Positions 16,790 to 47,002 of a stretch of DNA of 57,620 bases are shown here, piece after piece. A program made the position numbers and the translations under genes. Positions within the stretch are counted from its first letter, which is position 1. Every line of letters starts with the position of its first letter. The notes beneath the pieces are model-generated. The model did no database searches. It was not told the origin of the DNA and saw only the letters and a program-made list of their open reading frames with translations. The stretch covers positions 1 through 57,620 of the forward strand of contig JAAAOH010000318.1 of NCBI GenBank assembly GCA_009908925.1, read 5' to 3'. The DNA comes from Spirochaetota bacterium. Lineage in GTDB: Bacteria; Spirochaetota; Spirochaetia; DSM-27196; PWMO01.

Positions 16790-16913
16790 CCGTTGCGAAA
16801 CGCGAGCTACAACATGTTACATTGGAGAGGAATAGAGAAGAGTCTCGATCGGGCCACGTGCCCGTGACGCCGTCATCCTACGTCGATGTAGTTTTCTGGA
16901 TCTGAAGCTACAA

Positions 16914-20929: not shown

Positions 20930-20943
20930 AGATCCGGCTCCTT

Positions 20944-24893: not shown

Positions 24894-24965
24894 ACCGGTC
24901 GTCAGCTTACCCGGCATGCCGAGATCCGTACAGGTGTATCGACTTGCGAACTTTGGCGGTTCCTT

Positions 24966-24994
24966 TTGCAAGATTATCTACAATTCTGTATAAT
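24966..24994 (+). promoter_or_regulatory. near-consensus sigma70 promoter for the xdhA operon
   Basis: TTGCAA (24966-24971), a 17-nt spacer, then TATAAT (24989-24994). GGGAGG RBS lies 7 nt before ATG 25018. Confidence 0.55.
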
Positions 24995-25017: not shown

Positions 25018-27180
25018 ATGAAGCAGACCATCAGTGCGCCGGTTCTCCGCGTAGACTCCCACGGAAAAACCGCCGGTGCTGCCAAATACCTTGCAGACTA
25101 TGACTTCGACGGCATGCTCTATGCGCGCACGCTTCGAAGCGAGCGGGCGCGTGCGAGAATCCGGGCAGTGCATATCCCCCCGCTTCCGGAGGGGTACTAT
25201 TACGTCGATCACACCGATATTCCCGCCGGCGGGGCCAATCGCGTCGAGATGATCAAGAAAGACTGGCGGGCCTTCGCCGGACAGGAAACCCGGTTTTTCG
25301 GCGAGACGATCGGACTGATCGTGGGGCCCGACCGCTCGGAGATCCTGCGCATCATGAAGGCCATCGAGGTCGAATACGAGGATCTCGAGCCCGCCGTCAC
25401 GATCGACGAAGGACTCGCGGTGAAGGGCGGGCCCATTCACGGCTCGGATAATTTCTTTGCCGAGATCGACCTCACGAAAGGAGATCCCGACGGCGCGTTT
25501 GCCTCGGCGGCGAACGTGTTCGAGGGCACCTACGAGTCGGGCGTTCAGGAGCACGTCTACCTCGAGCCGCAATCTCTCGCGGCCCTCGTGGAGGACGGGA
25601 AGCTCACTATCTACGCCTCGACACAGTGTCCCTTCTACATCCGCCACTCCGTTGCGTCGGCCCTCGGCGTCGCCGAGGACGAGGTGCGGGTGCGTCACAC
25701 GGTCACCGGCGGGGGCTTTGGCGGCAAGGAGCACTATCCCGACGTCATCGCCGTACCGCTTGCCGTCGCCGCGCTCAAGACCGGACGCCCGGTGCAGATG
25801 GTGCTTCCGCGCGAGGAGGATATGGCCTTCACCAGCAAGCGCCACGCTTCCCGGATTAGAATCAGAAGCGCCCTTGCCGAAGACGGCTCTCTCCTTGGGA
25901 TGGAGATCGATACCGTCATCGACGCCGGGGCCTACGAGAGCTCCTCGATGGTCGTCCTGCAGCGCGCGCTCTTCACGAGTAACGGTGTCTACGATGTACC
26001 AAACGTGCATGCCCACGGGCGGGCGGTGGCAACGAACACGGTCCCAGCCGATGCGTTCCGCGGCTTCGGCGCTCCGCAGGGCCTCTTTGCCATCGAGATG
26101 CACATGAGCCAGATCGCCCGTGAGTACGGCATCGACGAGGACGAGTACCGGCGCCGATACTTCCTGGAGCAGGGAAGCCCGACCATTACCAACGGTCGCA
26201 TCCACGAGGAGGTGAAGCTCGCCGAGCTCATCGACGCCGTCAAGTCCATTTCCGACTACGACGCTCGGCGCGCACGGTGCACCCCCGGAAGCGGGAGGGG
26301 CATCGCGCTGTCCTTCGTACAGCACGGAAGCGGCTTTACCGGAAGCGGCGAGCGCGACATCATCAAGGCCAAGGTGCTGCTCCGACGGACCGCAGAGGGT
26401 CAGGTGGAGATCCACGCATCCTGCGTCGAGATCGGACAGGGGGTAGATACGACGCACCGAAAGGTCGTCGCCGACATCCTCGAAATCCCCTACACCGATG
26501 TGCTTCTCGTTAATACCGATACCGATCTCACGCCGAACTCCGGGCCCACCTGCGCGTCGCGGTCGGCATCAGTTGTGGGATTCCTCATCGAGCAGGCCTC
26601 CCGCGACCTGAAGCCCCGCCTCGGCGAGGAGGGTGTCGTTGAGGTTCTGCGGGAGTACACCCAGCCGGATGAGATCGTCTGGGACCCCCAGACGAACCAG
26701 GGAGATGCGTATCCCGCCTACAGCTGGGGGGTGAACTGCGTGGAGGTGGAAGTCGATCCGGTCACCCTCGAGGTAAACACCACGGGCATCTGGGCGGCCT
26801 ATGACATCGGCCGTGCCCTCGATGCCCTGGTGGTGAAGGGCCAGATAGACGGCGGAATGATCCAGGGGCTCGGGTACGGCCACATCGAGAAGATGGAGAG
26901 CCGTAACGGCGAGTTTCTCCAGACGAGCATGGCCGACTACGCCATCCCCACGTCCCTCGACTATCCCTCGGTGGCCAGCAGGCTCGTAGACAATCCCTTC
27001 CCCTACGGTCCTTCCGGGGCAAAGGGTGCCGGTGAGGTCGTCTTCGACGGTGCGGCGCCGGCTTTCGCCCTGGCGGTGCAGCACGCCCTTGATATGTCCC
27101 TGCATCGTATTCCCGTTACGCCCGAGTATCTGATGGAGGCTCGATCTCATGTACGAGATTTCGTTCACGCTCAACGGTAA
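25018..27180 (+). CDS. xdhA: xanthine dehydrogenase family, molybdopterin-binding large subunit
   Basis: 720 aa with GGGFGGKE, AFRGFGAPQG and GAKGAGE near the C-terminus. No Fe-S domain. Followed by separate Fe-S and FAD subunits. Confidence 0.9.
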   Translation: MKQTISAPVLRVDSHGKTAGAAKYLADYDFDGMLYARTLRSERARARIRAVHIPPLPEGYYYVDHTDIPAGGANRVEMIKKDWRAFAGQETRFFGETIGLIVGPDRSEILRIMKAIEVEYEDLEPAVTIDEGLAVKGGPIHGSDNFFAEIDLTKGDPDGAFASAANVFEGTYESGVQEHVYLEPQSLAALVEDGKLTIYASTQCPFYIRHSVASALGVAEDEVRVRHTVTGGGFGGKEHYPDVIAVPLAVAALKTGRPVQMVLPREEDMAFTSKRHASRIRIRSALAEDGSLLGMEIDTVIDAGAYESSSMVVLQRALFTSNGVYDVPNVHAHGRAVATNTVPADAFRGFGAPQGLFAIEMHMSQIAREYGIDEDEYRRRYFLEQGSPTITNGRIHEEVKLAELIDAVKSISDYDARRARCTPGSGRGIALSFVQHGSGFTGSGERDIIKAKVLLRRTAEGQVEIHASCVEIGQGVDTTHRKVVADILEIPYTDVLLVNTDTDLTPNSGPTCASRSASVVGFLIEQASRDLKPRLGEEGVVEVLREYTQPDEIVWDPQTNQGDAYPAYSWGVNCVEVEVDPVTLEVNTTGIWAAYDIGRALDALVVKGQIDGGMIQGLGYGHIEKMESRNGEFLQTSMADYAIPTSLDYPSVASRLVDNPFPYGPSGAKGAGEVVFDGAAPAFALAVQHALDMSLHRIPVTPEYLMEARSHVRDFVHAQR

Positions 27181-27655
27181 GTCGGTAACAACCCGGGCGC
27201 ATCCGCTTGCCCGGTTCCTCGATGTTCTTCGCGAGGAGTTCGGCATGACCGGTGTCAAAGAGGGATGCGGCGAGGGCGAGTGCGGAGCATGCTCCGTGCT
27301 CAAGGACGGCCGCATCGTCAACTCCTGCATCCTCTCGGTCGGCATGATCGAGGGCTGCTCGATCGAGACCCCGGAGGGTATCTCCGCAACCGAGAAGGGT
27401 GCGCTCATCTCCGACGGCTACGCCGAGGCCGGCGCCGTACAGTGCGGTTTCTGCATGACCGGCATGCTCGTTGCAACGGAGGCCCTGCTGCGGGAGAACC
27501 CCGATCCTGATGAGTGGACCATCCGCACGGCGATCTCTGGAAACCTGTGCCGGTGCACGGGCTACGCGCTGGTTGTGGACGGGGTCCAGCGGGCGGCCGA
27601 GAGGCGGGCCGCGGGGACGCAGCCGGCCCGGATGCAACCGGGAGGCCAGTCATGA
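27149..27655 (+). CDS. xdhC: xanthine dehydrogenase family [2Fe-2S] small subunit
   Basis: GCGEGECGACSV, QCGFCMTGML and CRCTGY. 168 aa. Overlaps the xdhA end. Confidence 0.9.
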   Translation: MYEISFTLNGKSVTTRAHPLARFLDVLREEFGMTGVKEGCGEGECGACSVLKDGRIVNSCILSVGMIEGCSIETPEGISATEKGALISDGYAEAGAVQCGFCMTGMLVATEALLRENPDPDEWTIRTAISGNLCRCTGYALVVDGVQRAAERRAAGTQPARMQPGGQS

Positions 27656-28548
27656 GCGCCGCCGGCCCCGATTTCTACAGCCCGAAGACGCTCGCAGAGG
27701 CATTGGAGGTTCGTGGCCGCACGGGCGCAATCCCGCTCGCCGGCGGCACCGACCTGCTGGTGCGGCGTCGAAGCTGGGCAGGCACGTTGCCCGAAATCGA
27801 CGAGCCTGTAGTCTTCATCGGCGCCGTTCCGGAGCTTTCAGGTGCAGAGGAGACCGAGACCGACGCGGGCAGGACGCTTCGCGTGGGCGCCGGGGTCACG
27901 TATGCCGATCTCCTCGTCGATTCGCGAGTTCCCGAGCTCCTTCGGGACTCCATTGCAGAGCTTGCAGCCCCCGGACTTCGCAACGTCGCGACGCTGGCGG
28001 GAAATATCTGCAACGCCTCCCCGGCGGCGGACGCCGTCTGCGCGCTCTACGCGCTCGACGCGAGCGTTGAACTCGCCTCCGCGGCCGGTACACGCACCGT
28101 CCCGATCGGCGAGTTCATTCTCGGCCCGGGCCGCACCACACTCGGCATCGATGAGCTCGTGGTGGCGGTGAGCATTCCGCAGATCGAGGGTAACCGTGTC
28201 TTCTACCACAAGGTGGGTACGCGTCGCGCGAACGCCCTGTCGAAGCTCTCCATCTGCGCCCATGCTACGGTGGTGGGGGACACCGTCGCCGCGGTGGCCG
28301 TGGCCCTCGGCGCGGTTGCACCCACGGTCGTTCGCGTGCGCGAGGCGGAGGAACTCGTGCGCTCCGCACCGGTATCGGGTATTGAATCCCGCATCGAGTC
28401 CGTTCTCGATGCCTATCGGCCCTTCGTCACGCCTATCTCGGATCAGCGGTCCACCGCGGAGTATCGAACGGAGGTGGCGCTCGGCCTGGTGAAGCGGTTT
28501 CTCGGAGAGTACCTGATCGCACCTGGATTGGCAAAGAATCCGGCGTAA
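27652..28548 (+). CDS. xdhB: xanthine dehydrogenase family FAD-binding subunit
   Basis: ATGA overlap with the Fe-S subunit and GGGAGG upstream. CoxM/XdhB pattern: AGGTDLLV, ATLAGNICNASPAAD, D.RSTAEYR. The listed ORF start at 27514 is out-of-frame overlap. Confidence 0.88.
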   Translation: MSAAGPDFYSPKTLAEALEVRGRTGAIPLAGGTDLLVRRRSWAGTLPEIDEPVVFIGAVPELSGAEETETDAGRTLRVGAGVTYADLLVDSRVPELLRDSIAELAAPGLRNVATLAGNICNASPAADAVCALYALDASVELASAAGTRTVPIGEFILGPGRTTLGIDELVVAVSIPQIEGNRVFYHKVGTRRANALSKLSICAHATVVGDTVAAVAVALGAVAPTVVRVREAEELVRSAPVSGIESRIESVLDAYRPFVTPISDQRSTAEYRTEVALGLVKRFLGEYLIAPGLAKNPA

Positions 28549-28607: not shown

Positions 28608-29648
28608 ATGAACGTCGTTACCGTTCGGCATGCCGAGCTAATGCTCTCCGGGTGTACGACCGCCGCAGATCACACCTACATCTGGCCCAACGACACACGG
28701 GTGGATGACGAGCTCGAGGCTGTCGCGGAGATGGGATTGCGGGTCCACTGCTCCCGGGGGTCCATGTCGGTGGGAGAGAGCCGCGGAGGACTCCCGCCGG
28801 ACAGCGTTGTGGAGGATGAGGATGCGATTCTGGCCGACACGCGACGGTTCATCGAGGAGTATCACGACGATCGCAACTACGCGATGACGCGCATCGTGGT
28901 AGCGCCGTGCTCGCCGTTCTCGGTTTCGGAGGACCTCATGAGAGAGAGCGCCGAGCTTGCCAGAAGCTACGGGGTGCACCTGCACACACACCTGGCCGAA
29001 ACCCGGGACGAGGAGGCCTACTGCCGAGGAACCCTCGGCGCGACGCCGGTGGAGTTTGCCGAGCGCGTGGGTTGGGCCGGTGATGATGTGTGGTTTGCTC
29101 ACATGGTGCACCCCCGTGAGGAGGAGATAACGCGTCTCGGCCGGCACCGCTGCGGCGCGGCGCACTGCCCGAGCTCCAACATGCGGCTCGGTTCCGGAAT
29201 TGCGCCCATTGCCCGCATGCACGCTGCCGGGATGCGTGTCGGGATCGGCGTGGACGGTTCGGCGTCAAACGACAGCTCGAACATGCTCGGTGAGGTGCGA
29301 CAGGCGATGCTTCTGCAGCGCCTTACGGGCTCCGGGGACATGAGCGCCCGCGAGGCGCTGTGGTACGCCACACGCGGCGGGGCGGCCGTGCTCGGGAGGG
29401 ACGACATCGGACGGATCGCGCCCGGGACGGCGGCGGACATCATCGGCGTGCGGCTCGACACGCTGTCCATGGCGGGCGGCGCCGTGCATGACCCCCTTGC
29501 GGCGCTGGTCTTCTGCAGCAATCCGGCGGTTTCGTTCTCTCTCATCAACGGGCGGCAGCGCGTCGTCGACGGTGAGCTGACCGGAGTCGACGTAGCTGCC
29601 CAGGTCTCACGTCACAACCGTGCCGCAACACGGCTCATCGACGGGTAG
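28608..29648 (+). CDS. 8-oxoguanine/isoxanthopterin deaminase-like amidohydrolase lacking the N-terminal ~100 residues (possibly a pseudogene)
   Basis: Homology starts mid-protein (AELMLSGCTTAADHTY...) and continues through HLHTHLAET, AHCPSSNMRLGSG and GVDGSASND. The N-terminal beta-sandwich and HxH metal motif are absent. Only 59 nt separate it from xdhB. Confidence 0.7.
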   Translation: MNVVTVRHAELMLSGCTTAADHTYIWPNDTRVDDELEAVAEMGLRVHCSRGSMSVGESRGGLPPDSVVEDEDAILADTRRFIEEYHDDRNYAMTRIVVAPCSPFSVSEDLMRESAELARSYGVHLHTHLAETRDEEAYCRGTLGATPVEFAERVGWAGDDVWFAHMVHPREEEITRLGRHRCGAAHCPSSNMRLGSGIAPIARMHAAGMRVGIGVDGSASNDSSNMLGEVRQAMLLQRLTGSGDMSAREALWYATRGGAAVLGRDDIGRIAPGTAADIIGVRLDTLSMAGGAVHDPLAALVFCSNPAVSFSLINGRQRVVDGELTGVDVAAQVSRHNRAATRLIDG

Positions 29649-29654
29649 GCTGCT

Positions 29655-30518
29655 ATGGATCTTATCGAGGTGAGTGACATCGTGCGACCGCGGAGTGAGG
29701 CGGATATACCACCATGGCAGGAGGGAGATGCGTACGTGGCCGGGGGCACGTGGTTATTCTCCGAGCCGCAGCCCGGCGTTCGACGGCTTGTCGATCTGAC
29801 CGACATCCCCTGGACACCCATCGAGCGCACCGACGACGTTATTCGGATTTCCGCAACCTGCACCTATGACGAGCTCGAAGCCGGTGGCGAGCTGCTCGGG
29901 GGGGCGGGGCCGCTGTTTTCCCGCGCGATCCGCACGCTCTCATCGAGCTTCAAGACCTACGGCGAGGCGACACTCGGCGGCAACATCTGCCTCGCATACG
30001 CGAAGTCGATGATGGCGCCGGTTTGTTGCGCGCTCGGGGCGACCTACGATCTTGCCACGCCGGAGGGACGGTCGCGGCGCGTCCTGGCCACGCTATTCCA
30101 GATCGATGCGCGAGAGACCATTCGCCGTCCCGGCGAATACCTCCGGGCAATTCTCATTCCGGCCGCGGCTACGAACGCTGCGTACGCGCTTCGCGCTCAC
30201 AGTTACACACCGACAAGCCACGCAACGGCCATGGTCATCGCGACGCGGCAGCCGGGGGCGGGCGGAAACGGATCGCGGGCTCATGAGGCGATGGCGCTCG
30301 TGGTGTCGGCCGCTACGACGCACCCGGTGCGTGTGGAGCTCGCCCCGGGCGCCCGAGAGGAGGACGCTGCCGCCGCCGCGGTGCGCGTCTGCAATAAGTC
30401 CTCCCTGCTCGATGACGCCCACGGCTCGGCAGCCTACCGCCGGGCGGTGGTGGCTCATCTCGCGGCACGCGCCACGGCGGCCGTCGGGAACAACGGGAGC
30501 GAAGAGGTGCGCTCATGA
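29655..30518 (+). CDS. FAD-binding subunit of a molybdenum hydroxylase (CoxM/YgfM-like)
   Basis: AGGTWLFSEPQ and TLGGNIC motifs. ATGA-coupled to the following Fe-S/Moco fusion. Confidence 0.8.
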   Translation: MDLIEVSDIVRPRSEADIPPWQEGDAYVAGGTWLFSEPQPGVRRLVDLTDIPWTPIERTDDVIRISATCTYDELEAGGELLGGAGPLFSRAIRTLSSSFKTYGEATLGGNICLAYAKSMMAPVCCALGATYDLATPEGRSRRVLATLFQIDARETIRRPGEYLRAILIPAAATNAAYALRAHSYTPTSHATAMVIATRQPGAGGNGSRAHEAMALVVSAATTHPVRVELAPGAREEDAAAAAVRVCNKSSLLDDAHGSAAYRRAVVAHLAARATAAVGNNGSEEVRS

Positions 30519-33403
30519 GAACGACGTCTCGCGTGAACGGGGTACAGCGGCAACTCGACCACGAGCCCGGAGACAGCCTTCTAACCGCGCTTCGATCCAA
30601 CGGGGTAACCGGTCCGAAGCGGGGCTGTGAGGCCGGCGACTGCGGCTGCTGCACCGTATGGATCGACGGCGAGGCGGTGCAGTCCTGCCTCTTCCCGGCC
30701 TTTCGTGCGGGGCATCGTCAGGTGACGACGATCGAAGGGCTTGCCCGCGTCTCCGGGGCGGCCGTCGTCGGCCATAGGACTTTGCCCCTTCATCCGGTTC
30801 AACAGGCCTTTCTCGACGAAGAGGGATATCAGTGCGGCTACTGCACCGCCGGGATGATCATGACCCTCGCATCCCCAGGGGCGGAGCGCTGCGACGGCCT
30901 CGGGGCACGGACGAAGGGAAATATCTGTCGCTGTACCGGCTGGAAATCCATCGAGCGGGCCGCGCATGCGGTCGAGGAACCCCGGCAGGCGGCGCTGCGC
31001 GAGGAGGAGACCGCCGGTGGTGTCGGCGCATCGGTTCCGAACCGTCATGGCCCCGACATCGTGAGCGGGGTCCCCTCCTTCACGAGTGACTTCCATGACG
31101 AGCTCCCCGGAGACGCAGAGCTCCTCCATATCGCGGCGGTTCGCTCGCCGCATGCCCATGCCGAGATCCACCGCGTAGACGCGGCCGCGGCGCTGGCCAC
31201 CGACGGCGTTATCGATGTGTTCTGGCACGAGCATGTCCCGCGCGTACCCTACACGACTGCCTGCCACCCCGCAGAGCCGCGAGATGCCTTCGACACCTAT
31301 CTGCTCGACAATCGGGTTCGGTTCGTCGGGCAGCGGGTAGCCATCGTCGTAGCAGAGTCGGTGCAGGCGGCGCGGCGTGCCGCCCGACGTGTCCGCGTGG
31401 AGTACACGGTACTCCAGTCTGTTATTGATCCGAGAGAGGCGCTCCGCGAGGGCGCGCCCGTTATCCATCCGGAGGCGGAGTCAACGCAGATTGCCGATCC
31501 GTGCCGCAATCTCATCGGTGAAATACGCTACCGACGGGGGGATGTGGAGGCCGGCCTGGCGGCGGCCGACGAGACCGTTGAGCTCGAGGTAGAGACGCCG
31601 CGGCAGCAGCACACCCATCTCGAGCCTCATACAGCGACGGCCTGGGTGGAGAATGACGGAACGTCGGAGGGGCTGCTTGTCGTGCGCACGAGCACACAGG
31701 TCCCGTATCTCACCCGGCGCACGCTCGCGCGCTCCCTCGGCCGAACGGAGGAGAGCATCCGCGTCTTCAAGCCGCGCGTCGGCGGGGGGTTCGGCAACAA
31801 GCAGGAGGTACTCTGCGAAGACCTCGTGGCGTTTACGGCGCTGCGGCTCGGGAGGCCGGTGAGCTGGGAGCTCTCTCGTGACGAGGAGTTCATAGCCACG
31901 AACACCCGCCACCCCATGATCCTCAGGGTTCGCGCGGGCGCCACGCGTGCCGGAGCTCTCACCGCCCTGTGTCTGGACTTCCTCGCCACCGGTGGGGCTT
32001 ACGGGAATCACTCCTATGACGTGCTCGAATGCGGCGCTTTCGAATCCCTTGCGTTGTACACCTGCGATGCCAAGGAGACCCATGGTCGTGCCGTGTATAC
32101 GAATACCGTGCCGGCCGGTGCCTTCCGCGGCTACGGTGCGGCGCAGACCACTTTTGCCGTGGACTCCGCGCTCGACGAGCTGGCCCTGAAACTTGGGATG
32201 GATCCCTGGGAGTTTCGACGCATGAACGTGGTGGGGCCCGACTCACCACTTCATCTCGGGCAGGAGGCGGACGCGTCGCACCGCCTCGGCGGCTATGCAC
32301 TCGACCGATGCCTCGACTACGTGCAGCGTAGGCTCAACGAGCTCGACGCCGCCGGAGAGGCGCATGCCGCGTCGAGCGGGAGCACCGAGTGGCGCTACGG
32401 CAGCGGGTTCGGTGTCTCCACGGTGGCCAGCGGGCTCGCCGATATCCATGTCTCCGGTGCAACCGCCGAGCTCACCGAGAGCGGCGTGCGGATCTGCACC
32501 GCTACCGCTGATATCGGCACGGGCTCGGATACGACCCTCGCGCAGATTGCAGCCGAAACGCTCGGCATCGGCTTCGACCGCATCGAGCTTCAAAGCGGAG
32601 ACACCGCCCGTGCTCCCGAAGACTCCGGTGCCTACGCATCCGCAACGGCCTATATCGGTGGCCGTGCGGTTGCGCTTGCTGCCGAACGCCTGCGGGAACG
32701 AATCCGTAAGCTCTCGGCAATCGTCCATGCGAGTGACCCGGAGGAGCTCGAGCTCACCGATCAGGGGATCGTGCGGCGTCCCGCGCGCCCAGGGGATGAC
32801 GGAGGCCGACCGACGAGGACCGTGGGCTTTGCCGAGCTTCTGCAGGCTGCGAAGGAGGCCGGTACGACGCTTCGGGCGAGCTCCGAGAGCGTCTCCTACC
32901 AAAGCGTGTCGATGAGCTTCGCCGTGGTGGGCGTGCATCTTCGCTGCCATGTTCCCACCGGGAGGGTCGAAGTCCTGGACGTGGTCCAGGGTGTCGACGC
33001 CGGACGGCTTCTGAATCCGCGCATCGCGCGTGCCCAGGCGGAGGGTGCTACCGCTCAGTCCATCGGCTATTCACTGAGCGAAGAGCTCGTCATAGACGAC
33101 AGCGGGAGGGTGGAAAATCCGACGTTTCGCGAGTATCGTGTACCCGCAGTGGGAGACATTGGTCCCATGGAGACGGTATTTTTCGAGGATCCCGACGATG
33201 CGGGCCCGTTCGGGGCGAAGGCGTTGGGTGAGCTCACCACCACTGCCGCACCTGCAGCGGTTGCCAACGCGGTCAGGCGCGCGATCGGGTCGCGCCCGAC
33301 GCGGTTGCCGCTGACCGGTGAGACCGTGTGGCGGCTGCTGAACGACGCAACAGCAAAAGGAGGGCCGGTTCATGAGAAAGCAGACCGAGCTTCTCGGAAG
33401 TAG
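30515..33403 (+). CDS. second XdhD-type fused [2Fe-2S]/molybdopterin hydroxylase, substrate unknown
   Basis: CEAGDCGCCTV, QCGYCTAGMIM and CRCTGW, followed by large-subunit motifs GGGFGNKQ (not GGGFGGKE), GAFRGYGAAQ and GAKALGE. 962 aa. Confidence 0.85.
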   Translation: MRTTSRVNGVQRQLDHEPGDSLLTALRSNGVTGPKRGCEAGDCGCCTVWIDGEAVQSCLFPAFRAGHRQVTTIEGLARVSGAAVVGHRTLPLHPVQQAFLDEEGYQCGYCTAGMIMTLASPGAERCDGLGARTKGNICRCTGWKSIERAAHAVEEPRQAALREEETAGGVGASVPNRHGPDIVSGVPSFTSDFHDELPGDAELLHIAAVRSPHAHAEIHRVDAAAALATDGVIDVFWHEHVPRVPYTTACHPAEPRDAFDTYLLDNRVRFVGQRVAIVVAESVQAARRAARRVRVEYTVLQSVIDPREALREGAPVIHPEAESTQIADPCRNLIGEIRYRRGDVEAGLAAADETVELEVETPRQQHTHLEPHTATAWVENDGTSEGLLVVRTSTQVPYLTRRTLARSLGRTEESIRVFKPRVGGGFGNKQEVLCEDLVAFTALRLGRPVSWELSRDEEFIATNTRHPMILRVRAGATRAGALTALCLDFLATGGAYGNHSYDVLECGAFESLALYTCDAKETHGRAVYTNTVPAGAFRGYGAAQTTFAVDSALDELALKLGMDPWEFRRMNVVGPDSPLHLGQEADASHRLGGYALDRCLDYVQRRLNELDAAGEAHAASSGSTEWRYGSGFGVSTVASGLADIHVSGATAELTESGVRICTATADIGTGSDTTLAQIAAETLGIGFDRIELQSGDTARAPEDSGAYASATAYIGGRAVALAAERLRERIRKLSAIVHASDPEELELTDQGIVRRPARPGDDGGRPTRTVGFAELLQAAKEAGTTLRASSESVSYQSVSMSFAVVGVHLRCHVPTGRVEVLDVVQGVDAGRLLNPRIARAQAEGATAQSIGYSLSEELVIDDSGRVENPTFREYRVPAVGDIGPMETVFFEDPDDAGPFGAKALGELTTTAAPAAVANAVRRAIGSRPTRLPLTGETVWRLLNDATAKGGPVHEKADRASRK

Positions 33404-34136
33404 GACGCGTGTCGAGGCGCGCTACGCGCTTATTCCGCTCGACGGCATCCCGCTTTCACGCCTGCCGGCGTGGCCCGATGCGGAGGTACAGGTGCTCGCA
33501 GCTCCGGCTCTCGGTGCGCAGTTCGCCGAGTACCGGATTCACATGCCGCCCGGCACCGGGGGTGCGTACGGCGCCGATGGAGAGACCGAGCACTTCCTTT
33601 TCGTGCTCGACGGTGCGGTGGAGCTCGGCCTCGAGTCCGGCACCGGCACCGGGGCCCACCGACTTGATTCAGGCGGCTATGCCCTCATCCCGCCGAGCGC
33701 GGGCTACCGAGTTCGTGCCGCCGAGGATACGACCCTTCTTCTGCTTCGCAAGCGGTATGAGCCCCTGCCCGAGGTCGAGGAGTTCGAGGCGCTCATCGGG
33801 TCCCAGCAGGACGTTCGCGGCGAAGTCTACATGGGGGACGAGGGAGCGCTCTTGCAGTCGCTCGTTCCCAAAGACTTCTCCTACGACCTCGCGATGAACA
33901 TCTTTACCTTCGAGACCGGGCACAGCCTGCCGGTTACCGAAACCCACGTTATGGAACACGGTTTGTACGTGCTTGCCGGAAAGGGGTTGTACTACCTCGG
34001 AGGTACCTGGATGGAAGTGAGAGAAAGCGACTTCATCTGGATGGGGCCCTTCTGTCCCCAGAGTTACTACGCGACCGGGCCCGAGCCGACTCGCTACATC
34101 TACTACAAGAACGTGAATCGCGAAATACCCCTCTGA
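33372..34136 (+). CDS. allE: (S)-ureidoglycine aminohydrolase (bicupin)
   Basis: Collinear with E. coli AllE/YlbA as remembered: two cupin halves, ...E.F.FV..G...L, ET.HVMEHGLYVL.G.G.Y.L...W..V...DFIWMG, YIYYK.VNR. Confidence 0.85.
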   Translation: MRKQTELLGSRTRVEARYALIPLDGIPLSRLPAWPDAEVQVLAAPALGAQFAEYRIHMPPGTGGAYGADGETEHFLFVLDGAVELGLESGTGTGAHRLDSGGYALIPPSAGYRVRAAEDTTLLLLRKRYEPLPEVEEFEALIGSQQDVRGEVYMGDEGALLQSLVPKDFSYDLAMNIFTFETGHSLPVTETHVMEHGLYVLAGKGLYYLGGTWMEVRESDFIWMGPFCPQSYYATGPEPTRYIYYKNVNREIPL

Positions 34137-34156: not shown

Positions 34157-35140
34157 ATGAACGAGAAGATTTACCGCGACGACGACGTGGATGAGTCCGT
34201 ACTCGACGGGAAGACCATAGCGGTCATCGGCTACGGCATTCAGGGAAAGGTTCAGGCAATGAACGCTCGCGACTCCGGTTGCAGCGTCATCGTCGGGACC
34301 CGCCCCGCCTCCCGCAGCCGATCCCGCCGGGAGGCGGAGGCCGACGGCTTCGAGGTCCGCGACTACGCCGAGGCCGTATCGAAAGGCGATGTACTGCTCA
34401 TCGAGCTCGCCGATCCGGCGCAACCACCTGTCTACGCCGAATCCATCGAGCCGAACCTGCGTGCCGGACAGACCCTCGTCTTCTGTCACGGATTCAACGT
34501 GCTTTACGGCTCCATCAAGCCGCCGGAGAATGTGAACACGGCCCTCTTCGTGCCGAACGCGCCCGGCGCTTTTGTCCGCGAGAAGTATCAGAATGGCGAG
34601 GGCATCTACGGATGTATCAGCGTAGACCACGATGCCACGGGAAATGCGCGCGAGATCGCGCTTGCCGTATCCAAGGTGGTCGGATCGACGCGTGCCGGTG
34701 TAGTGGAGCTGACGTTCCAGCAGGAAACCGAAGGCGATAACTTCGAGGAGCAGATCCTCTACGGCGGGGTAATCCACCTCATGCGGTTGTGCTTTCAGAC
34801 GATGGTGAACAACGGCTACCCGGCGAGCTTTGCCTACGCGAAGTCGATCCGATCGCTTCGCAGTGTGATCGACGTGATGGACGAGCACGGGATCGAGGAC
34901 TACCTGACCGGCCGCTCGAGCCGAACCTGCGAGTTCGCGGTCCGTACTCGGGGGCCGCGGGTCATAAACGACGAAGAGGTAGCAAAGATCTTCGCCGAGA
35001 CCGAGCAGGGCATCTTTGCGCGCGACTGGATGCAGGAGTGGCAGCTCGGCATGCCCCAGATTCATCGCCTACGGAGAGCCCAGGCCGACACCACCATGGA
35101 GCAGACCGGCCGGGACTGGCGCGAGCAGTTCGGCGTATGA
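34157..35140 (+). CDS. ketol-acid reductoisomerase-fold (class I KARI-like) oxidoreductase paralogue
   Basis: Full-length collinearity with class I IlvC: LDGKTIAVIGYGIQG, LVFCHGFNV, TFQQETEGDNFEEQ. Several canonical catalytic motifs are replaced (see finding). AAAGGAG RBS. Confidence 0.8.
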   Translation: MNEKIYRDDDVDESVLDGKTIAVIGYGIQGKVQAMNARDSGCSVIVGTRPASRSRSRREAEADGFEVRDYAEAVSKGDVLLIELADPAQPPVYAESIEPNLRAGQTLVFCHGFNVLYGSIKPPENVNTALFVPNAPGAFVREKYQNGEGIYGCISVDHDATGNAREIALAVSKVVGSTRAGVVELTFQQETEGDNFEEQILYGGVIHLMRLCFQTMVNNGYPASFAYAKSIRSLRSVIDVMDEHGIEDYLTGRSSRTCEFAVRTRGPRVINDEEVAKIFAETEQGIFARDWMQEWQLGMPQIHRLRRAQADTTMEQTGRDWREQFGV

Positions 35141-36837
35141 CGGAGCACGGGAGCGCCGACCCGATCAGCGCCTCGCAGATCAGTGCCGAGCGCATCGCCG
35201 CCGATATCGAGGCGATCGCCGGCTTCTCCGAGAGCCCGGCTGAGATCGGCTACAGTCGCCCCACTTTCACGAGCGCCTGGAAAGCCGCCAGGGACTACGT
35301 GATCGAGCAGGCAGAGAAGGCCGGCGCCGAACACGTGATTGACGCTGCGGGCAACGTGCACGTCCGCCATCCGACGGTGGGCTGGGATAGCCCGGTATGG
35401 CTTTCCGGCTCTCACCTCGACTCCGTGCCGTCAGGCGGTAAGTACGATGGCGTGATGGGAGTGGTCATCCCCCTCGAGATTCTGCGGGTGCGTCCCGACC
35501 TGCCCCTCGAGCTGGTGATATTCTGCGAAGAGGAGGGGACGACGTTCAACCTCGGCATGATCGGAAGCCGCGCCTGGACCGGGGCGGTGGACGTAGAGAC
35601 GCTCGAGCGCCTAACCAATCGTGACGGGCAGACTGTTGTCGAGGCGGGAACGCCGTACGGGCTCGACGTCGAGCGGCTCAGAGCCGCGGCGGCCGCAGAC
35701 CCGGCCTCGGCACCCACGGGTGTGCGCTGGACCGACCGGATCGACCCGCAGCGCTACATCGGCCTCGTCGAGGTGCACGCCGAGCAGGGGGTGAGCCTGT
35801 GGGACGCAGGGGTTCCCCTTGCGGCGGTGGACCGGATCAACGGCCGGCGACAGTTCGAGGTCACGGTTACCGGGCACGCAAATCACGCGGGCTCCACCGG
35901 GATGCAGGGCAGACGCGATGCGCTCGTCGGCGCTGCGGAGATGGTAGCCGCCATTGAGACCCTCGGGCTCGAGCTTGATGCGGATCTCCCGTACTCGGTC
36001 TGCACGGTCGGAAGGCTCTCGGTGGCACCGGGGGCGGCAAACGTCATACCCGGCGAGGTCGGGTTCTCGGTGGATATGCGGGGCCAGCAGGAGGAGCTTC
36101 TCGAGCGCGGGGAGACCGCCCTCCGCGAGCGTCTCGCCGGGATTGCCGGGCGCCGTGGTCTGGACGTCCACGTGGGGCGAAGCGAGCATATCGCGCCGTC
36201 GCCGTTGTCGTCGAAGATCGGTCGTGCCCTGCAGGCCGCCGCCGCGGAGCTTGGTCTCGAGATTCCCATTCGGCCGAGCGGTGCTCTCCACGATGCCGCC
36301 ATCGTCGCTGAGCATGTGCCGACGGCCATGGTCTTCGTGGCAAGCCGCGGCGGCATCAGCCACAACCCGGAGGAGTTCAGCGCGAGTGACGACATCGCGC
36401 AGGCGGCGGCGGTGCTGCTTCGTATGATCGAACGCATCCCGACGGGGCGGCGAGCGGACAGCCGGCCGGAGATGCGATCACCCTCGGAGAGCTCAACGCG
36501 ATGCCCCACGACCGGGCGGTTGACTGCTGCAGCGGATTCTTCGAGCGGTCTCCGTGGATCGTCGAGCAGGCACTTCGCGGGCGGCCCTTTCGGTCGCTCC
36601 CGGCACTCCACGGCGCGTGCATGCGTGTCATCGAAGAGGCCGGTGAGGACGCGCAACTTGCCCTTATTCGGGCGCATCCGGACCTCGTCGGGCGCCTCGC
36701 GAAACAGGGGCGTCTGGGTGCGGAGTCCACCCGTGAGCAGGCAGCCGCCGGTCTTGCCGAGCTCAGGCCCGCGGAAGCGGAGACCTTTGACCGCTTCAAC
36801 GCCGCGTACCACGAGCGGTTCGGATTTCCATTCGTGA
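35137..36837 (+). CDS. allC: allantoate amidohydrolase (M20). Homology ends near 36445 and the rest is stop-less read-through
   Basis: ATGA overlap with the KARI-like gene. AllC pattern: SGSHLDSVP.GG.YDG, EEEG..F, VTVTGHANHAGSTGM..R.DA, ALHDAAI...VPTAMVFV.S..GISHNPEE. No in-frame stop occurs until 36835-36837. The listed ORF start at 34789 is spurious. Confidence 0.8.
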   Translation: MTEHGSADPISASQISAERIAADIEAIAGFSESPAEIGYSRPTFTSAWKAARDYVIEQAEKAGAEHVIDAAGNVHVRHPTVGWDSPVWLSGSHLDSVPSGGKYDGVMGVVIPLEILRVRPDLPLELVIFCEEEGTTFNLGMIGSRAWTGAVDVETLERLTNRDGQTVVEAGTPYGLDVERLRAAAAADPASAPTGVRWTDRIDPQRYIGLVEVHAEQGVSLWDAGVPLAAVDRINGRRQFEVTVTGHANHAGSTGMQGRRDALVGAAEMVAAIETLGLELDADLPYSVCTVGRLSVAPGAANVIPGEVGFSVDMRGQQEELLERGETALRERLAGIAGRRGLDVHVGRSEHIAPSPLSSKIGRALQAAAAELGLEIPIRPSGALHDAAIVAEHVPTAMVFVASRGGISHNPEEFSASDDIAQAAAVLLRMIERIPTGRRADSRPEMRSPSESSTRCPTTGRLTAAADSSSGLRGSSSRHFAGGPFGRSRHSTARACVSSKRPVRTRNLPLFGRIRTSSGASRNRGVWVRSPPVSRQPPVLPSSGPRKRRPLTASTPRTTSGSDFHS

Positions 36838-36983
36838 TCTGCGCGCGGAAGAACCGGAAGAATGCGATTCTCGAAGCCTTCCCGAAGCGGCTCGAACACG
36901 AGCGCACGGAAGAGATTGCTACCGCGATCGGGCAGATCGGCGAGATTGCGTGGTTGCGCATGTCCGACGCCATCGTGGACTGA
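36501..36983 (+). CDS. uraD: OHCU (2-oxo-4-hydroxy-4-carboxy-5-ureidoimidazoline) decarboxylase. Homology extends upstream of the only start codon
   Basis: FERSPWIVEQA, RPF.S, IRAHPDL, S..EQA.AGL, FN.AY..RFGFPFVIC and R motifs. The frame is open from 36390 and encodes ITLGELNA before ATG 36501. Confidence 0.8.
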   Translation: MPHDRAVDCCSGFFERSPWIVEQALRGRPFRSLPALHGACMRVIEEAGEDAQLALIRAHPDLVGRLAKQGRLGAESTREQAAAGLAELRPAEAETFDRFNAAYHERFGFPFVICARKNRKNAILEAFPKRLEHERTEEIATAIGQIGEIAWLRMSDAIVD

Positions 36984-37016: not shown

Positions 37017-37910
37017 ATGGCAGTTCTGAGAGACAATTCCTACGGGAAGGAACGGGTCAGGCTGACGAAGATTGTGCGTGACGAGTCGGGCGGCTCGACG
37101 CCCCCGGTCCATCACGTCTACGAGTACACCGTCGAGATCATGCTTCACGGAGCCTTCGATCGGGTGTATACCGATGCGGACAACTCCGCATGCGTTCCCA
37201 CCGACACGATGAAGAACACCGTGTATGCGGTGGCTCGCACGAGCACGTTTTCCTCTCCAGAGCAATTTGCCGATGCGCTCTCGGGCCGCTTCATCGACCG
37301 CTTCGAGCAGGTAGAGGGGGTCGATATCGAGTTAGAGGCCCAACGCTGGCGCCGCATCGAGGTGGACGGAGCGCAGCACCCGCACGCCTTCGAGAAACAG
37401 CATGGCACGCGGACGGCCGTCATATCCCGTCGAGGTGCAGATGCGGCATCCTCGCAGTCGGCTCTGTCAGGCGGCATCCGCGGTATGGAGGTCTTCAAGA
37501 GCACGGGCTCGGGCTTCACGGGGTTCTACCACGACGAGTACACGACCCTGCCTGAAACCGAAGACCGTATCCTTGCCACCACCGTCGACGCGGAGTGGGA
37601 CTACGGTGCCGGCGTGGACATGGCGGGCACGGACTTCGATAGCGTTTGGGAGACGATCCATCACACCGTCGCGCGGGTCTTCGCGAAGCATGACAGCCCG
37701 AGCCTACAGGCGACCCTCTGGGAGATGGGCACCGCAGTCATCGGGGAGGTGCCGGTCGTGGACTCCATCAGCTTCTCCATGCCCAACCAGCATCACATCC
37801 GCTTCGACTTGAGCGCGTTCGGGCTCGACAACCCGAACGAGGTCTTCTACGGAACCGACTCACCGTTCGGCATTATCACCGGCACGGTCGATCGTGAGGA
37901 GGAAACATGA
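37017..37910 (+). CDS. urate oxidase (cofactor-independent uricase)
   Basis: Collinear with Arthrobacter/Bacillus uricases as remembered: YGK..VRL.K, V.TDT.KNTVYA.A, HAF, TAV, KSTGS.F.GF..D.YTTL.ET.DRILAT, MPN.HH, DNPNEVFY. Confidence 0.88.
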   Translation: MAVLRDNSYGKERVRLTKIVRDESGGSTPPVHHVYEYTVEIMLHGAFDRVYTDADNSACVPTDTMKNTVYAVARTSTFSSPEQFADALSGRFIDRFEQVEGVDIELEAQRWRRIEVDGAQHPHAFEKQHGTRTAVISRRGADAASSQSALSGGIRGMEVFKSTGSGFTGFYHDEYTTLPETEDRILATTVDAEWDYGAGVDMAGTDFDSVWETIHHTVARVFAKHDSPSLQATLWEMGTAVIGEVPVVDSISFSMPNQHHIRFDLSAFGLDNPNEVFYGTDSPFGIITGTVDREEET

Positions 37911-38260
37911 GCGCAAAACTGAGTACGCACGTGCTCGACACCGCCTCCGGGCGGCCTGCCGGCGGCGTAGCGCTTGAGCTGTGGCGAAAAGCGGCGGAGG
38001 AGTGGGAGCTCGTGATCACGGCGCGGACCAACGCCGACGGCCGCACCGACGGCCCGCTGCTGTCCGGAGACAGAATCGAGCCGGGCGACTACCGGCTCGT
38101 GTTCGATGTTGCCTCCTATTTTCGCGCGCAGGGCCACCCGGATGCCGGCGTGTTTCTGACCGAGGTGCCGCTTGCCTTCCGGATTTCCGACGCGGGCGCC
38201 GGCTATCACGTTCCGCTGCTCGTCTCGCCCTGGTCCTACACCACTTATCGGGGGAGTTGA
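37907..38260 (+). CDS. hiuH: 5-hydroxyisourate hydrolase (transthyretin-like)
   Basis: 117 aa with LSTHVLDT..G.PA, YHVPLL.SP..Y.TYRGS and the diagnostic C-terminal YRGS. Confidence 0.9.
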   Translation: MSAKLSTHVLDTASGRPAGGVALELWRKAAEEWELVITARTNADGRTDGPLLSGDRIEPGDYRLVFDVASYFRAQGHPDAGVFLTEVPLAFRISDAGAGYHVPLLVSPWSYTTYRGS

Positions 38261-38263
38261 GCC

Positions 38264-39640
38264 ATGGCGTACGAGCTACTGATTCGCGGCGGGACGGTGG
38301 TGACGGCGGAGGGCGTCGAGGTTGCCGACATCGGGATCGAAGACGGCCGGATCGCCGAGGTTGCCGGTGAGATGAGTGGCGGGCGCGGTCCCGGCACGCA
38401 GGAGATCGATGCCCGGGGGCTTCACGTGTTCCCGGGCGTCGTGGATGCCCATGTGCACTTCAACGATCCCGGGCGCGACCATTGGGAAGGCGCGGCCACC
38501 GGTTCGGCGGCGCTCGCAGCAGGCGGGGGCACCGTCTTCATCGACATGCCCCTCAACTCATCCCCGCCCGTCCTCGACGGCGCATCCTTCGACGCCAAGC
38601 TCCAGGCCTGCGAAGGGCGATCCTTCACCGACTTTGCGCTCTACGGGGGGCTCACCCCCGTGAATCTCGATTCCATGGAGGAGCTCGCCGAGCGGGGCGT
38701 TGCCGGCTACAAGGCCTTCATGTGCCCGAGCGGCATTGACGATTTCCAGTGGTCCGACGACGTCACGCTGTACCGCGGCATGGAGATCGCCGCCCGGGCG
38801 GGGCTGCCCGTGCTCCTCCACGCCGAGAGCGCGCCTATCCTTGCCGCGCTGAGTGCAGCGTCTCAGGGTTCCGGGGAGGGACCGGGCGCCGCGAACGCCG
38901 GCGCCGGCGGTGCGCCAACCGCCGTGCGCCGCTTCCTCGACTCGCGGCCGGTCATTGCCGAGCTCGAGGCCATCAACCGGGCGCTTCTCTTCGCCGAGGA
39001 GACCGGCTGCCGAATTCACGTCGTCCACATCACCAACCGCCGCGGTGTCGAGCTCATCCGTCGGGCCGTTGCCGGCGGCCGGGTCGACGCGTCCGCCGAG
39101 ACCTGTCCCCACTACCTGTTCTTCACCGACCGGGACATGGAGACGATCGGCGCCCGAGCGAAGTGCGCGCCGCCATTGCGCGAGGAGGACATTCGCCGCG
39201 GCCAGATCGAGGCCCTGCTCGCCGGTGAGATCGACACCGTGGGCTCGGACCACTCGCCGGCGCCGTCGGACATGAAGGACCGCGAGGATTTCTCTACCGC
39301 CTGGGGGGGCATCCCGGGTGCCCAGACGACGCTACGCACCCTGCTGACGGTGGAAATACCCCCGGAGCGCATCGCGGCGGTGGCCGCACAGAATCCAGCC
39401 GAGCGCTTCGGACTGGCGGGGAAGGGCCGCATCGAAGTGGGCTACGATGCCGACCTCGCGCTGGTGCGTGTCGATACCGAGGCTGAGCTTACCAGCGACG
39501 AGCTTCGTGACCGCCATCGGCTGAGTCCCTACTTGGGGCGCAGGTTGTGCGGCCACGTGGAGCGGGTCCTGCTTCGGGGACGCGAGGTAGACGACACGCC
39601 GCGCGGGCGGTTCCTCCGGCCGGCTGACGCGCGGCGCTAG
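38264..39640 (+). CDS. allB: allantoinase
   Basis: DAHVHFNDPGR.HWEG, GG.T...DMPLN, LLHAE, HVVHI, ETCPHYL, GSDHSP.P, WGGI.G.Q and RH..SPY.GR, collinear with E. coli AllB as remembered. Confidence 0.9.
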   Translation: MAYELLIRGGTVVTAEGVEVADIGIEDGRIAEVAGEMSGGRGPGTQEIDARGLHVFPGVVDAHVHFNDPGRDHWEGAATGSAALAAGGGTVFIDMPLNSSPPVLDGASFDAKLQACEGRSFTDFALYGGLTPVNLDSMEELAERGVAGYKAFMCPSGIDDFQWSDDVTLYRGMEIAARAGLPVLLHAESAPILAALSAASQGSGEGPGAANAGAGGAPTAVRRFLDSRPVIAELEAINRALLFAEETGCRIHVVHITNRRGVELIRRAVAGGRVDASAETCPHYLFFTDRDMETIGARAKCAPPLREEDIRRGQIEALLAGEIDTVGSDHSPAPSDMKDREDFSTAWGGIPGAQTTLRTLLTVEIPPERIAAVAAQNPAERFGLAGKGRIEVGYDADLALVRVDTEAELTSDELRDRHRLSPYLGRRLCGHVERVLLRGREVDDTPRGRFLRPADARR

Positions 39641-40788
39641 GAAGTCGCAGGCGGCACGAAGGGAGAGAAAATCGGCGCGGCCGCGTGTGCGCTCAACGGC
39701 TCGCCGCTTCGTCCGTGGCGGGTCGCCTGGATCTCGGCCACGATCGACAGGGCGATGTCCTCGGGTGCTTTCCCGCCGAGGTCGAGCCCGATGGGTGTGT
39801 GTACCGGCGGAAGCACCGAGAGATCGAATCCGGACTCCGCCTGCCGGGTCTCGCGCTCGGTGTGGCGCGCCCGCTTTCCCATGCACCCGACATAGGAAAC
39901 CCGCGGCATCTTTATGAGTGTCCGGAACAGGTCGTCCTCGAACCGGGTCTCATGTGTGAGCGATACGACGCAGGCGCGCCTTCCGAGGCCGTCGGGCCCG
40001 GTGCCCAGGCGTTCGGGAAGCTCCCGTGGCCAGGCGCAGATGACCTCTTGCGCATCGGGGAAGTGCTCGGCGCGGGCGTAGGTGGCGCGGGGGTCTGCAA
40101 CGACCACCCGAAAGCCCATGGTCCGACCGAGGGTGCTGAGGGGATAGGCAACCGTTGCCGCCCCGAAGATGAGCAGAAGCGTGGACGGAATGCGTGGCTC
40201 GGAGAGCTCGACCCACAACCCTTCGTCGGTGTTCGTGACCCGGGACACGGGGGCGTCGGACGGGCCGACGGATCCGGCCGCGGACTCCCGCCCGCCTGCC
40301 GACCCGGTTGCCGCCGCACCGTCTGCCGGTACCAGGCGATGCTCGAGCTCGTGGACCTCCTGCCCGTCCGGCGTGCGGTACCGGGTGAGCAGTGTCGCTC
40401 CCGCCGGGCGCTCGAGCTGTTCGAGCAGGGTGGAGGTGAGTGGCTCGAGGAGGACGTCGATCGTACCGTCGCAGTTGAGGCCGACCTCGAGCTCGGTGTT
40501 CTCCACTTTGCTGTACTCGACGAGGCGGGGCGCGCCGCCGGCAAGAACCTGTTCGGCCTGTAGCGTCACATCGCGTTCGACACATCCGCCGCTTACCGAC
40601 CCGACGAAATCGTCGCCGTCGGAGATGACCATACGCCCGCCGAGCGGCCGGCTCGACGAGCCGCGAATCCGCGTGATCGTGGCCAGGACCAGGGGACGTC
40701 CCTGATCCGCCCATGCGCGTGCTTTCTGCAGCAGATACTCTTCGAACACCACGTGCAGAAGATACCGTGTAGGCCGCGTTGTTGTCAT
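39637..40788 (-). CDS. XdhC/CoxI family molybdenum hydroxylase accessory (Moco sulfuration/insertion) protein
   Basis: N-terminal XdhC_CoxI pattern (LATI..IRGSS.RP.G.RM.I...G...GS.SGGC.E) and a C-terminal Rossmann-like XdhC_C domain (LLIFGA). The start may be a downstream GTG (40752 or 40749). Confidence 0.83.
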   Translation of the reverse strand: MTTTRPTRYLLHVVFEEYLLQKARAWADQGRPLVLATITRIRGSSSRPLGGRMVISDGDDFVGSVSGGCVERDVTLQAEQVLAGGAPRLVEYSKVENTELEVGLNCDGTIDVLLEPLTSTLLEQLERPAGATLLTRYRTPDGQEVHELEHRLVPADGAAATGSAGGRESAAGSVGPSDAPVSRVTNTDEGLWVELSEPRIPSTLLLIFGAATVAYPLSTLGRTMGFRVVVADPRATYARAEHFPDAQEVICAWPRELPERLGTGPDGLGRRACVVSLTHETRFEDDLFRTLIKMPRVSYVGCMGKRARHTERETRQAESGFDLSVLPPVHTPIGLDLGGKAPEDIALSIVAEIQATRHGRSGEPLSAHAAAPIFSPFVPPATS

Positions 40789-46882: not shown

Positions 46883-47002
46883 ACGTGCTCCTTGACGCCC
46901 ACGCTCTGCGTCGCTCAACAGTATAGCCCTTCCCGCCGGGCGCGCAAGGAAGAACCAATCTTGACAGCCGTCGTGTGCAGTCATAGGCTCGCGCTACGAG
47001 CT

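Follow-up and report, generated by a model that had tools for sequence, protein, structure and literature searches.

What becomes of ureidoglycolate in bacteria whose allantoin operons encode neither AllA nor AllD? How bacteria finish the catabolism of purines and allantoin is known from a few model organisms, where the final steps run via AllA, AllD or ureidoglycolate amidohydrolase (UAH), and to our knowledge AllD is the only NAD-dependent enzyme that consumes ureidoglycolate. The question is raised by a 57,620-nt stretch of DNA from a Spirochaetota bacterium (contig JAAAOH010000318.1, assembly GCA_009908925.1), the whole of which we call the window. Between its allE and allC-like genes lies an open reading frame (ORF) whose product resembles ketol-acid reductoisomerase (KARI). 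An initial annotation, made from the letters alone, had proposed that this KARI-like protein is a non-orthologous ureidoglycolate dehydrogenase. Our comparisons support a neofunctionalised KARI paralogue, rather than ilvC, acting in the allantoin pathway. It is very probably an NAD(P)-linked oxidoreductase at the ureidoglycolate node. The reaction that we rank first, with a probability of roughly 40%, is (S)-ureidoglycolate + NAD(P)+ to oxalurate + NAD(P)H, which would make the enzyme a replacement of AllD by an unrelated protein.

The kinship with KARI is clear. A Pfam scan finds KARI_N (PF07991, E 3e-55) and KARI_C (PF01450, E 1e-26), and the protein aligns end to end with solved class I KARIs at about 40-45% identity (best E 9e-81, HMMER against the PDB), in agreement with the collinearity first noticed from the letters. 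It scores 275 against the older TIGR00465, above the cut-off of 226, and stays below the cut-offs of the newer equivalog models NF004017 (322; cut-off 336) and NF009940 (267; cut-off 406). Every naming source labels members of the family ketol-acid reductoisomerase.

We read the motif changes from HMMER alignments to PDB KARIs and from MAFFT alignments, with E. coli IlvC aligned for residue numbering. Five of the eight conserved polar active-site residues of KARI are kept (E. coli H132, E213, D217, E221 and S414, here H111, E190, D194, E198 and S255). The other three are replaced (K155 by N134, E389 by K229, E393 by S233), leaving the protein short of the complete set of a functional IlvC. The dinucleotide motif GYGSQG(H/R)AQA of ordinary KARIs becomes GYGIQGKVQA, APK(G/S)PG becomes VPNAPG, AYFE.(L/V)HELK becomes AYAKSIRSLR, and S(D/N)TAE becomes SRTCE, which places R256 and C258 after the Ser. 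In the acidic motif, ETETDLFGEQ becomes ETEGDNFEEQ, which retains Asp and Glu and has a further Glu, E197, in place of the Gly preceding E198. The initial annotation had described most of this correctly, namely the change from a GYGSQGHAHA-type motif, the metal-binding helix replaced by AKSIRSLR and the retained GDNFEEQ. It had also counted a Lys and a His as lost from APKGPGH. The Lys is indeed gone; the His is not conserved among ordinary KARIs, so its loss carries no weight.

From the mutagenesis literature, we take E. coli K155, E389 and E393 to serve the second metal and alkyl migration. The kept set is presumably the dinucleotide site and the first metal site, as used by the half-reaction that reduces a 2-oxo acid. 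Judged by alignment, the KARI scaffold has here retained the reductase half of its active site intact, and the isomerase half is replaced. This pattern is invariant in more than 200 homologues and is therefore the product of neither chance nor decay. Among the best 120 database relatives, which are 74-92% identical, 160 of the 327 positions are at least 97% conserved, every changed motif included.

The family is also sharply bounded. Identity within the clade is 70-92% across phyla versus 38-43% to ordinary KARIs, and among 1.8 billion cluster representatives searched the nearest full-length non-members lie at 38-48%. A search from a 48% intermediate (P0121) showed that the six-residue signature N134/E197/K229/S233/R256/C258 reaches members at only 55-64% identity. 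Such distant carriers include the isolates Wukongibacter baidiensis (Clostridia) and Aggregatilinea lenta (Chloroflexota) and one archaeal metagenome-assembled genome (MAG). In all, one pattern set places the family in at least 195 reference genomes and another in more than 260 metagenome contigs; its carriers belong to Planctomycetota, Spirochaetota, Chloroflexota and Clostridia, with a Verrucomicrobia MAG and archaeal MAGs besides.

A sister clade with the signature E134/V197/K229/E233/D256/C258 is found in Bathyarchaeia (loci L090/L091, 8713-12240) and at locus L087 (6047-10414). In Bathyarchaeia its gene lies between genes for an ornithine carbamoyltransferase (OTC)-like and an isopropylmalate/homocitrate-synthase-like protein, with an arginine-deiminase-like gene, DUF1989 and creatininase nearby. 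This context points to a further uncharacterised pathway of ureido compounds.

The position of the KARI-like gene is as distinctive as its active site. In the window, the allE stop codon (34134-34136) is followed by the ribosome-binding site GAAAGGAG and, 20 nt downstream, by the KARI-like ATG; at the other end the stop codon overlaps the start of the AllC-like M20 gene in an ATGA at 35137-35140. Both junctions had been described correctly from the letters. For the wider context of the window's own clade (clade A), we took one genome per species (195 relatives) and combined tblastn with window proteins and called genes. The counts below refer to the best 80 loci, many of them on incomplete contigs, from Spirochaetota, Planctomycetota (Tepidisphaeraceae, Pirellulales, Phycisphaerae, Planctomycetaceae) and one Verrucomicrobia MAG. 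They share a fixed co-directional array: AllE, KARI-like protein, AllC, 2-oxo-4-hydroxy-4-carboxy-5-ureidoimidazoline (OHCU) decarboxylase, uricase, 5-hydroxyisourate (HIU) hydrolase and allantoinase (Table 1). Purine deaminases, xanthine dehydrogenase (XDH) and XdhC usually flank it. The KARI-like protein is the best conserved of the array, with a median identity of 73% versus 43-57% for the others. Counting both clades, purine-catabolic context recurs in 160+ loci from several phyla with no ilv or leu genes among the conserved neighbours, so the initial view that this is no branched-chain amino-acid setting holds well beyond the window.

In E. coli the corresponding block reads allD-allC-allE, and the KARI-like gene holds allD's place beside allC and allE. 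Pfam scans of essentially all ORFs of the window, together with tblastn using E. coli AllA and AllD, found neither protein there, as the initial annotation had stated. With GlxR, Hyi, GlxK and AllF/G/H added as E. coli queries, tblastn gave no match in the window or in any of 171 loci; Gcl matched in one of the 171. The KARI-like gene is co-operonic with allC and allE and exclusive of other ureidoglycolate consumers in these loci, which is the pattern of a gene in the AllD role. It is the only conserved gene without an assigned role in operons that, in the loci examined, otherwise stop at ureidoglycolate. The protein has no Ldh_2 domain and no similarity to E. coli AllD, so any function common to the two would be analogy, not homology. 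Two small cupins, the fold class of AllA-like lyases, are encoded in the window (DUF985/Cupin_5, 54742-55287, 181 aa; Cupin_2, 4079-4498, 139 aa); neither matches the ureidoglycolate lyase family.

More distant members, about 55-65% identical, form clade B, for which 82 loci were collected from isolates, large contigs and a metagenome scan. Their gene order begins with (allantoin racemase), an aspartate carbamoyltransferase (ATC)-like enzyme, carbamate kinase, allantoinase, sometimes an ArgE/DapE-type M20 protein, AllE and the KARI-like protein. It continues, often after a 170-aa thioredoxin-fold ORF, with an N-acetylornithine carbamoyltransferase (AOTC)-like enzyme, (FixC-FixX-ETFβ-ETFα, ETF being electron-transfer flavoprotein) and a ThiO/SoxB-like flavoprotein; some arrays extend with a deaminase, an amidohydrolase and GcvT/H/P. 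AllE lies directly upstream of the KARI-like gene in 35 of 57 loci and is the downstream neighbour in 7 more, and the AOTC-like, OTC-family enzyme follows directly in 33 of 55. Variants exist: Wukongibacter has AllE-M20-KARI-like, the M20 protein resembling allantoate amidohydrolase (AAH), with a separate bona fide AllC, and loci L098 and L110 read ATC-like-AllE-KARI-like-AAH-like M20. The ATC-like enzyme is presumed to be the published ureidoglycine carbamoyltransferase (UGTCase).

The AOTC-like enzyme after the KARI-like gene (L086, 11083-12135; L089, 11120-12154; L132, 11532-12584) is nearest to N-acetylornithine carbamoyltransferase models and scores below every NCBIfam cut-off. It represents a transcarbamylase subfamily with no assigned role, with oxamate, glycine or hydroxyglycine as candidate substrates. 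Any of these would be new for the OTC family, since the known oxamate enzyme, AllFGH, is unrelated. Between the two genes, 26 of 44 clade B loci carry a conserved ORF of 167-175 aa (e.g. L132, 10960-11487; L093, 5211-5714). By eye it has a thioredoxin fold with WSGDV in place of CxxC, and it matches no NCBIfam model.

The two clades also differ in the cofactor loop, residues 47-58 (window 34295-34330). In clade A the loop reads G-T/A-R-P-x-x-x-S-x-S-R, with R49, S54 and S56 in 141 of 149 sequences; R49 and S56 correspond to R68 and S78 of E. coli IlvC. Clade B and the sister clade have G-A/S-G/S-x-x-x-x-F/H/Y-x-D-W, in which the Arg is lost, position 49 is Gly or Ser, and Asp56-Trp57 follow. 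Asp56 resembles S78D, a substitution that we take to switch KARI to NADH use. The difference suggests that members of a single functional family have switched between NADP(H) and NAD(H), and such coherent, clade-specific changes imply selection on nucleotide binding.

How might such an enzyme work? In the reaction that we rank first, the KARI-like enzyme would take labile (S)-ureidoglycolate from co-translated AllE and change the oxidation state of C2, the same carbon to which KARI transfers hydride, so that oxalurate formation would be KARI's C2 chemistry in reverse. The ureido product would then be decarbamoylated by a neighbour: the AllC-like M20 hydrolase in clade A, and the OTC-like carbamoyltransferase with carbamate kinase, yielding ATP, in clade B. 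Synthesis of branched-chain amino-acid precursors would have been given up. By our own application of the Cahn-Ingold-Prelog rules, C2 of (S)-ureidoglycolate would correspond in space to that of the KARI product (2R)-2,3-dihydroxyisovalerate, the ureido group standing where C3 does. A substrate with an N-H there would likewise fit the lack of ligands for the metal that holds the C3 oxygen. The fold, the residue pattern, its conservation throughout the family, the place in the operons with AllE and a decarbamoylase as partners, and the lack of AllA and AllD from the clusters are observed; substrate, direction and products are what we infer. A carbamoyltransferase with a carbamate kinase nearby is what an oxalurate branch needs, and in this respect clade B supports oxalurate as the product; the oxamate branch requires both enzymes (PMC11326118).

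Several observations weigh against oxidation to oxalurate. None of the 80 clade A loci has a carbamoyltransferase or carbamate kinase gene less than 10 kb from the KARI-like gene, so that the consumption of oxalurate made there would fall to the M20 enzyme or to unlinked genes. The array finishes with glycine-cleavage genes in 8 of the 34 clade B loci with enough sequence, serine dehydratase appears in three, and the ThiO/SoxB-like flavoprotein with ETF is common in clade B; oxamate formation accounts for neither the glycine-cleavage genes nor the flavoprotein and ETF. (The same 10-kb neighbourhoods of the 80 clade A loci hold no flavoprotein or ETF gene either.) The NADPH-type loop predicted for clade A would be unusual for an uphill catabolic oxidation and more typical of a reductase, and an NADPH-type loop in the aerobic clade with an NADH-type loop in the anaerobic one would be the pattern of a reductive step. 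Nor does modelling help. An AlphaFold2 monomer model built on a 51-sequence alignment has a mean predicted local distance difference test score of 73.5 and a good N-domain, but its C-terminal knotted domain (residues ~190-310) scores about 45, since that domain folds only as an intertwined dimer. The model is unreliable in this half of the active site, and we left it unused for geometry.

One earlier argument for a dehydrogenase falls away altogether. The initial annotation had reasoned that a carbamoyltransferase and a carbamate kinase in the window would need oxalurate-type substrates. The two are YgeW and YqeA of the reductive urate pathway and need no oxalurate, and this pair is linked to the KARI-like gene in 0 of 80 clade A loci. 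What survives of the proposal is a neofunctionalised KARI paralogue in the allantoin pathway, in allD's position, with AllA and AllD in 0 of 171 loci. As to direction, the clade B carbamoyltransferase and carbamate kinase fit an oxalurate branch, and the loops and glycine-cleavage genes fit reduction at least as well.

The strongest competitor, less probable than oxidation but serious, is a reductive ureide branch: NAD(P)H-dependent conversion of ureidoglycolate to N-carbamoylglycine via the dehydrated N-carbamoyl-imine, followed by a decarbamoylase that releases glycine. The decarbamoylase would be the AllC-like carbamoylase in clade A (aerobes) and Wukongibacter, and an OTC-family "glycine carbamoyltransferase" with carbamate kinase in clade B (anaerobes). 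Indeed, every cluster type pairs the KARI-like gene with a decarbamoylase from families acting on N-carbamoyl-amino acids (M20 hydantoinase/carbamoylase, AOTC/YgeW-like). Wukongibacter, which has a true AllC, keeps a second, AAH-like M20 protein between AllE and the KARI-like gene, and L098 and L110, with a presumed UGTCase, have an AAH-like M20 after it. The distribution of loops, NADPH-type with uricase and NADH-type with carbamate kinase, fits as well, as do the glycine-cleavage genes, and clade A would need no further unlinked enzyme. The fold is no obstacle: imine reductases such as ProC, and opine dehydrogenases, belong to the same superfamily as KARI. The chemistry itself, dehydration of a hemiaminal and then C=N reduction, would be new for the KARI scaffold, however, and the kept Mg-site residues suit 2-hydroxy/2-oxo acid chemistry better. 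N-carbamoylglycine is no known purine catabolite; a literature search returned only two unrelated Pseudomonas putida studies and no link to the allantoin pathway. Only about one locus in four, moreover, has the glycine-cleavage genes.

A reductase acting at the level of glyoxylate is improbable. Here the M20 protein (as UAH) or the OTC-like enzyme would remove the ureido group first, and the KARI-like enzyme would make glycolate, or glycine by reductive amination. UAH is known to be paralogous to AAH, a family with two genes in Wukongibacter, the reaction would be the 2-oxo-acid reductase chemistry of the kept half of the KARI site, and the NADPH-type loop and the glycine-cleavage genes of some clusters agree with it. 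Common enzymes of other families already do this, however, glycolate would be pointless for an aerobic nitrogen scavenger, and no glycolate-utilisation genes were found in the clusters. The remodelled pocket (K229, R232, R235, R256, N134) and very high conservation suggest a larger, specific ligand, and the most tightly linked gene is that for AllE rather than one for an enzyme that forms glyoxylate. We give still less credit to a catalytically dead protein that scaffolds or regulates the AllE and AllC steps, for instance by channelling unstable ureidoglycine and ureidoglycolate. Three lost catalytic residues, translational coupling to both neighbours and the highest conservation in the cluster would suit such a role, but GxGxxG, the His, the acidic metal motif and the Ser never vary, nor do the residues that stand in for the lost ones, and the cofactor loop changes coherently with clade. 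Least credible of all is an ordinary divergent ilvC lying in a purine operon by chance. The label that every naming source gives it and its TIGR00465 score are what one would expect of it; no member retains the Lys or either Glu of the second half-site, the cut-offs of the two newer equivalog models are missed, the purine context without ilv/leu neighbours is conserved, and the identity gap to true KARIs is sharp. Oxidation of (S)-ureidoglycolate to oxalurate stays first in our ranking.

Table 1. Genes of the KARI-like operon and of the reductive urate set in the window, with occurrence in the best 80 clade A loci.
Feature	Position	Strand	Remarks	Clade A loci
SsnA/HyuA-type amidohydrolase	7920-9257			
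YgeW carbamoyltransferase	9249-10445		bona fide; 647 bits, cut-off 453	
PLP enzyme	10584-12053		may be YgeX-type	
XdhD-type Mo enzyme	16914-19727			
YgeY-type M20	19724-20965			
SsnA/HyuA-type amidohydrolase	20944-22305			
YgfK-type FeS flavoprotein	22302-24971			
8-oxoguanine/guanine-deaminase-like amidohydrolase	28608-29648	+	upstream, same co-directional array (28608..33403)	
XDH FAD subunit	29655-30518	+	upstream, same co-directional array	
XDH FeS/Mo subunit	30515-33403	+	upstream, same array; overlaps allE start	
(S)-ureidoglycine aminohydrolase AllE	33372..34136	+	TIGR03214 270 bits, cut-off 200; immediate upstream neighbour; makes (S)-ureidoglycolate	73/80, adjacent to KARI-like gene
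KARI-like oxidoreductase	34157..35140	+	ATG start, 327 aa; signature N134, E197, K229, S233, R256, C258; GxGxxG, H111, E190, D194, E198, S255 kept	
AllC-like M20 amidohydrolase, hydantoinase/carbamoylase family	35137..36837	+	homologous part ends ~36440; ORF then overruns next gene	73-74/80, adjacent to KARI-like gene
OHCU decarboxylase	36477..36983	+	PF09349 E 1e-44; tblastn vs L084 orthologue; homology from ~36477, first start codon 36501	67/80
Cofactor-independent urate oxidase (uricase)	37017..37910	+	TIGR03383 326 bits	57/80
5-Hydroxyisourate hydrolase	37907..38260	+	TIGR02962 128 bits	62/80
Allantoinase (AllB type)	38264..39640	+	TIGR03178 485 bits, cut-off 358	56-58/80
Carbamate kinase	44965-45906		YqeA-type	
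PLP enzyme	46598-48151		may be YgeX-type	
PLP, pyridoxal phosphate; Mo, molybdenum; FeS, iron-sulfur; FAD, flavin adenine dinucleotide.

Some genes of the array have irregular reading frames. The AllC-like ORF lacks a stop where its orthologues end (~410-413 aa) and continues over the OHCU decarboxylase gene in a frame different from that gene's, gaining about 130 aa; the decarboxylase frame itself has no ATG, GTG or TTG before the first start codon listed. This arrangement (36330-36983) could be an assembly indel, an AllC::OHCU-decarboxylase fusion needing a frameshift, or a shortened decarboxylase. As this gene is present, the KARI-like protein can be dismissed as a substitute for OHCU decarboxylase. 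Upstream, the deaminase-like amidohydrolase scores 506 bits against the 8-oxoguanine deaminase model (cut-off 532), and its match is confined to positions 112-452 out of the model's 455. The N-terminal 110 residues, among them metal ligands, seem to be either absent or encoded in a different frame. Three XDH-family molybdenum subunits fall within 17 kb (the XdhD-type enzyme, 25018-27180 and the FeS/Mo subunit), with two XDH FAD subunits (27514-28548 and the one listed) and an XdhC maturation factor (39637-40788).

Elsewhere, positions 7920-24971 and 44965-48151 hold what is apparently a near-complete gene set for the reductive (2,8-dioxopurine) route of urate breakdown. There, a ureido intermediate is turned into albizziin by YgeW, which uses phosphate, and HyuA (bioRxiv 10.1101/2025.05.19.654654). 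From its gene content, this looks like one organism with an O2-dependent uricase route and an anaerobic reductive urate route side by side.

Many genomes with complete operons from uricase to ureidoglycolate lack AllA, AllD and UAH, and assigning the KARI-like protein would close this hole in the pathway. Correction would follow for thousands of annotations and reconstructions that wrongly credit a step of branched-chain amino-acid synthesis. The protein would also be a clean example of a KARI that has shed its isomerase half-site and been recruited to nitrogen catabolism. If the reductive reading were true, it would add a purine-to-glycine route and a carbamoyltransferase specificity, both of them new: purine rings would yield glycine and ammonia, no urea, glyoxylate or oxamate would be formed, none of the four urate nitrogens would be lost, and the glycine cleavage system of the same clusters would keep the route in redox balance. 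Our literature search found no paper linking a KARI/IlvC-like protein to allantoin, allantoate, allantoinase, uricase, ureidoglycolate or oxalurate, and no published description of a remodelled KARI-fold enzyme in the AllD/AllA position. That the enzyme marks a new pathway branch is a credible possibility.

Among known systems, class I KARI (IlvC, EC 1.1.1.86; PDB 8EP7, 7Q03, 4TSK) is the closest in build. The two share the two-domain architecture, the length and 38-45% identity, and both have GxGxxG, the His of HGF, the E-x-x-x-D-x-x-x-E metal motif and the partner domain's Ser. Unlike class I KARI, the KARI-like protein combines the three replacements at K155, E389 and E393 with E197, R256 and C258, belongs to a tight separate clade with its own sister clade, and is encoded in a conserved purine-catabolic operon with no ilv/leu context. 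AllD (E. coli, Ldh_2 family, EC 1.1.1.350) resembles it in the opposite way: the fold is unrelated and the clade A loop suggests NADP(H), but the operon position next to allC and allE is the same, and AllD precedes AllFGH and AllK much as the clade B protein precedes a branch yielding carbamoyl phosphate. Rubrobacter offers a third comparison, with an allantoin-to-carbamoyl-phosphate route that includes a ureidoglycine carbamoyltransferase, Rxyl_2847 (Barba et al. 2013, PMC4016543). Its cluster and clade B both have an ATC-like carbamoyltransferase, carbamate kinase and allantoinase; that paper describes no KARI-like gene and no second, AOTC-like carbamoyltransferase, and clade A uses the hydrolytic AllC. 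Finally, the YgeW/YqeA module removes the carbamoyl group of an N-carbamoyl-amino acid by phosphorolysis, for which other species can use a hydrolase instead, and so mirrors the OTC-like versus M20 partners of the KARI-like protein, but it belongs to a separate pathway and is unlinked to the KARI-like gene in 80 of 80 clade A loci.

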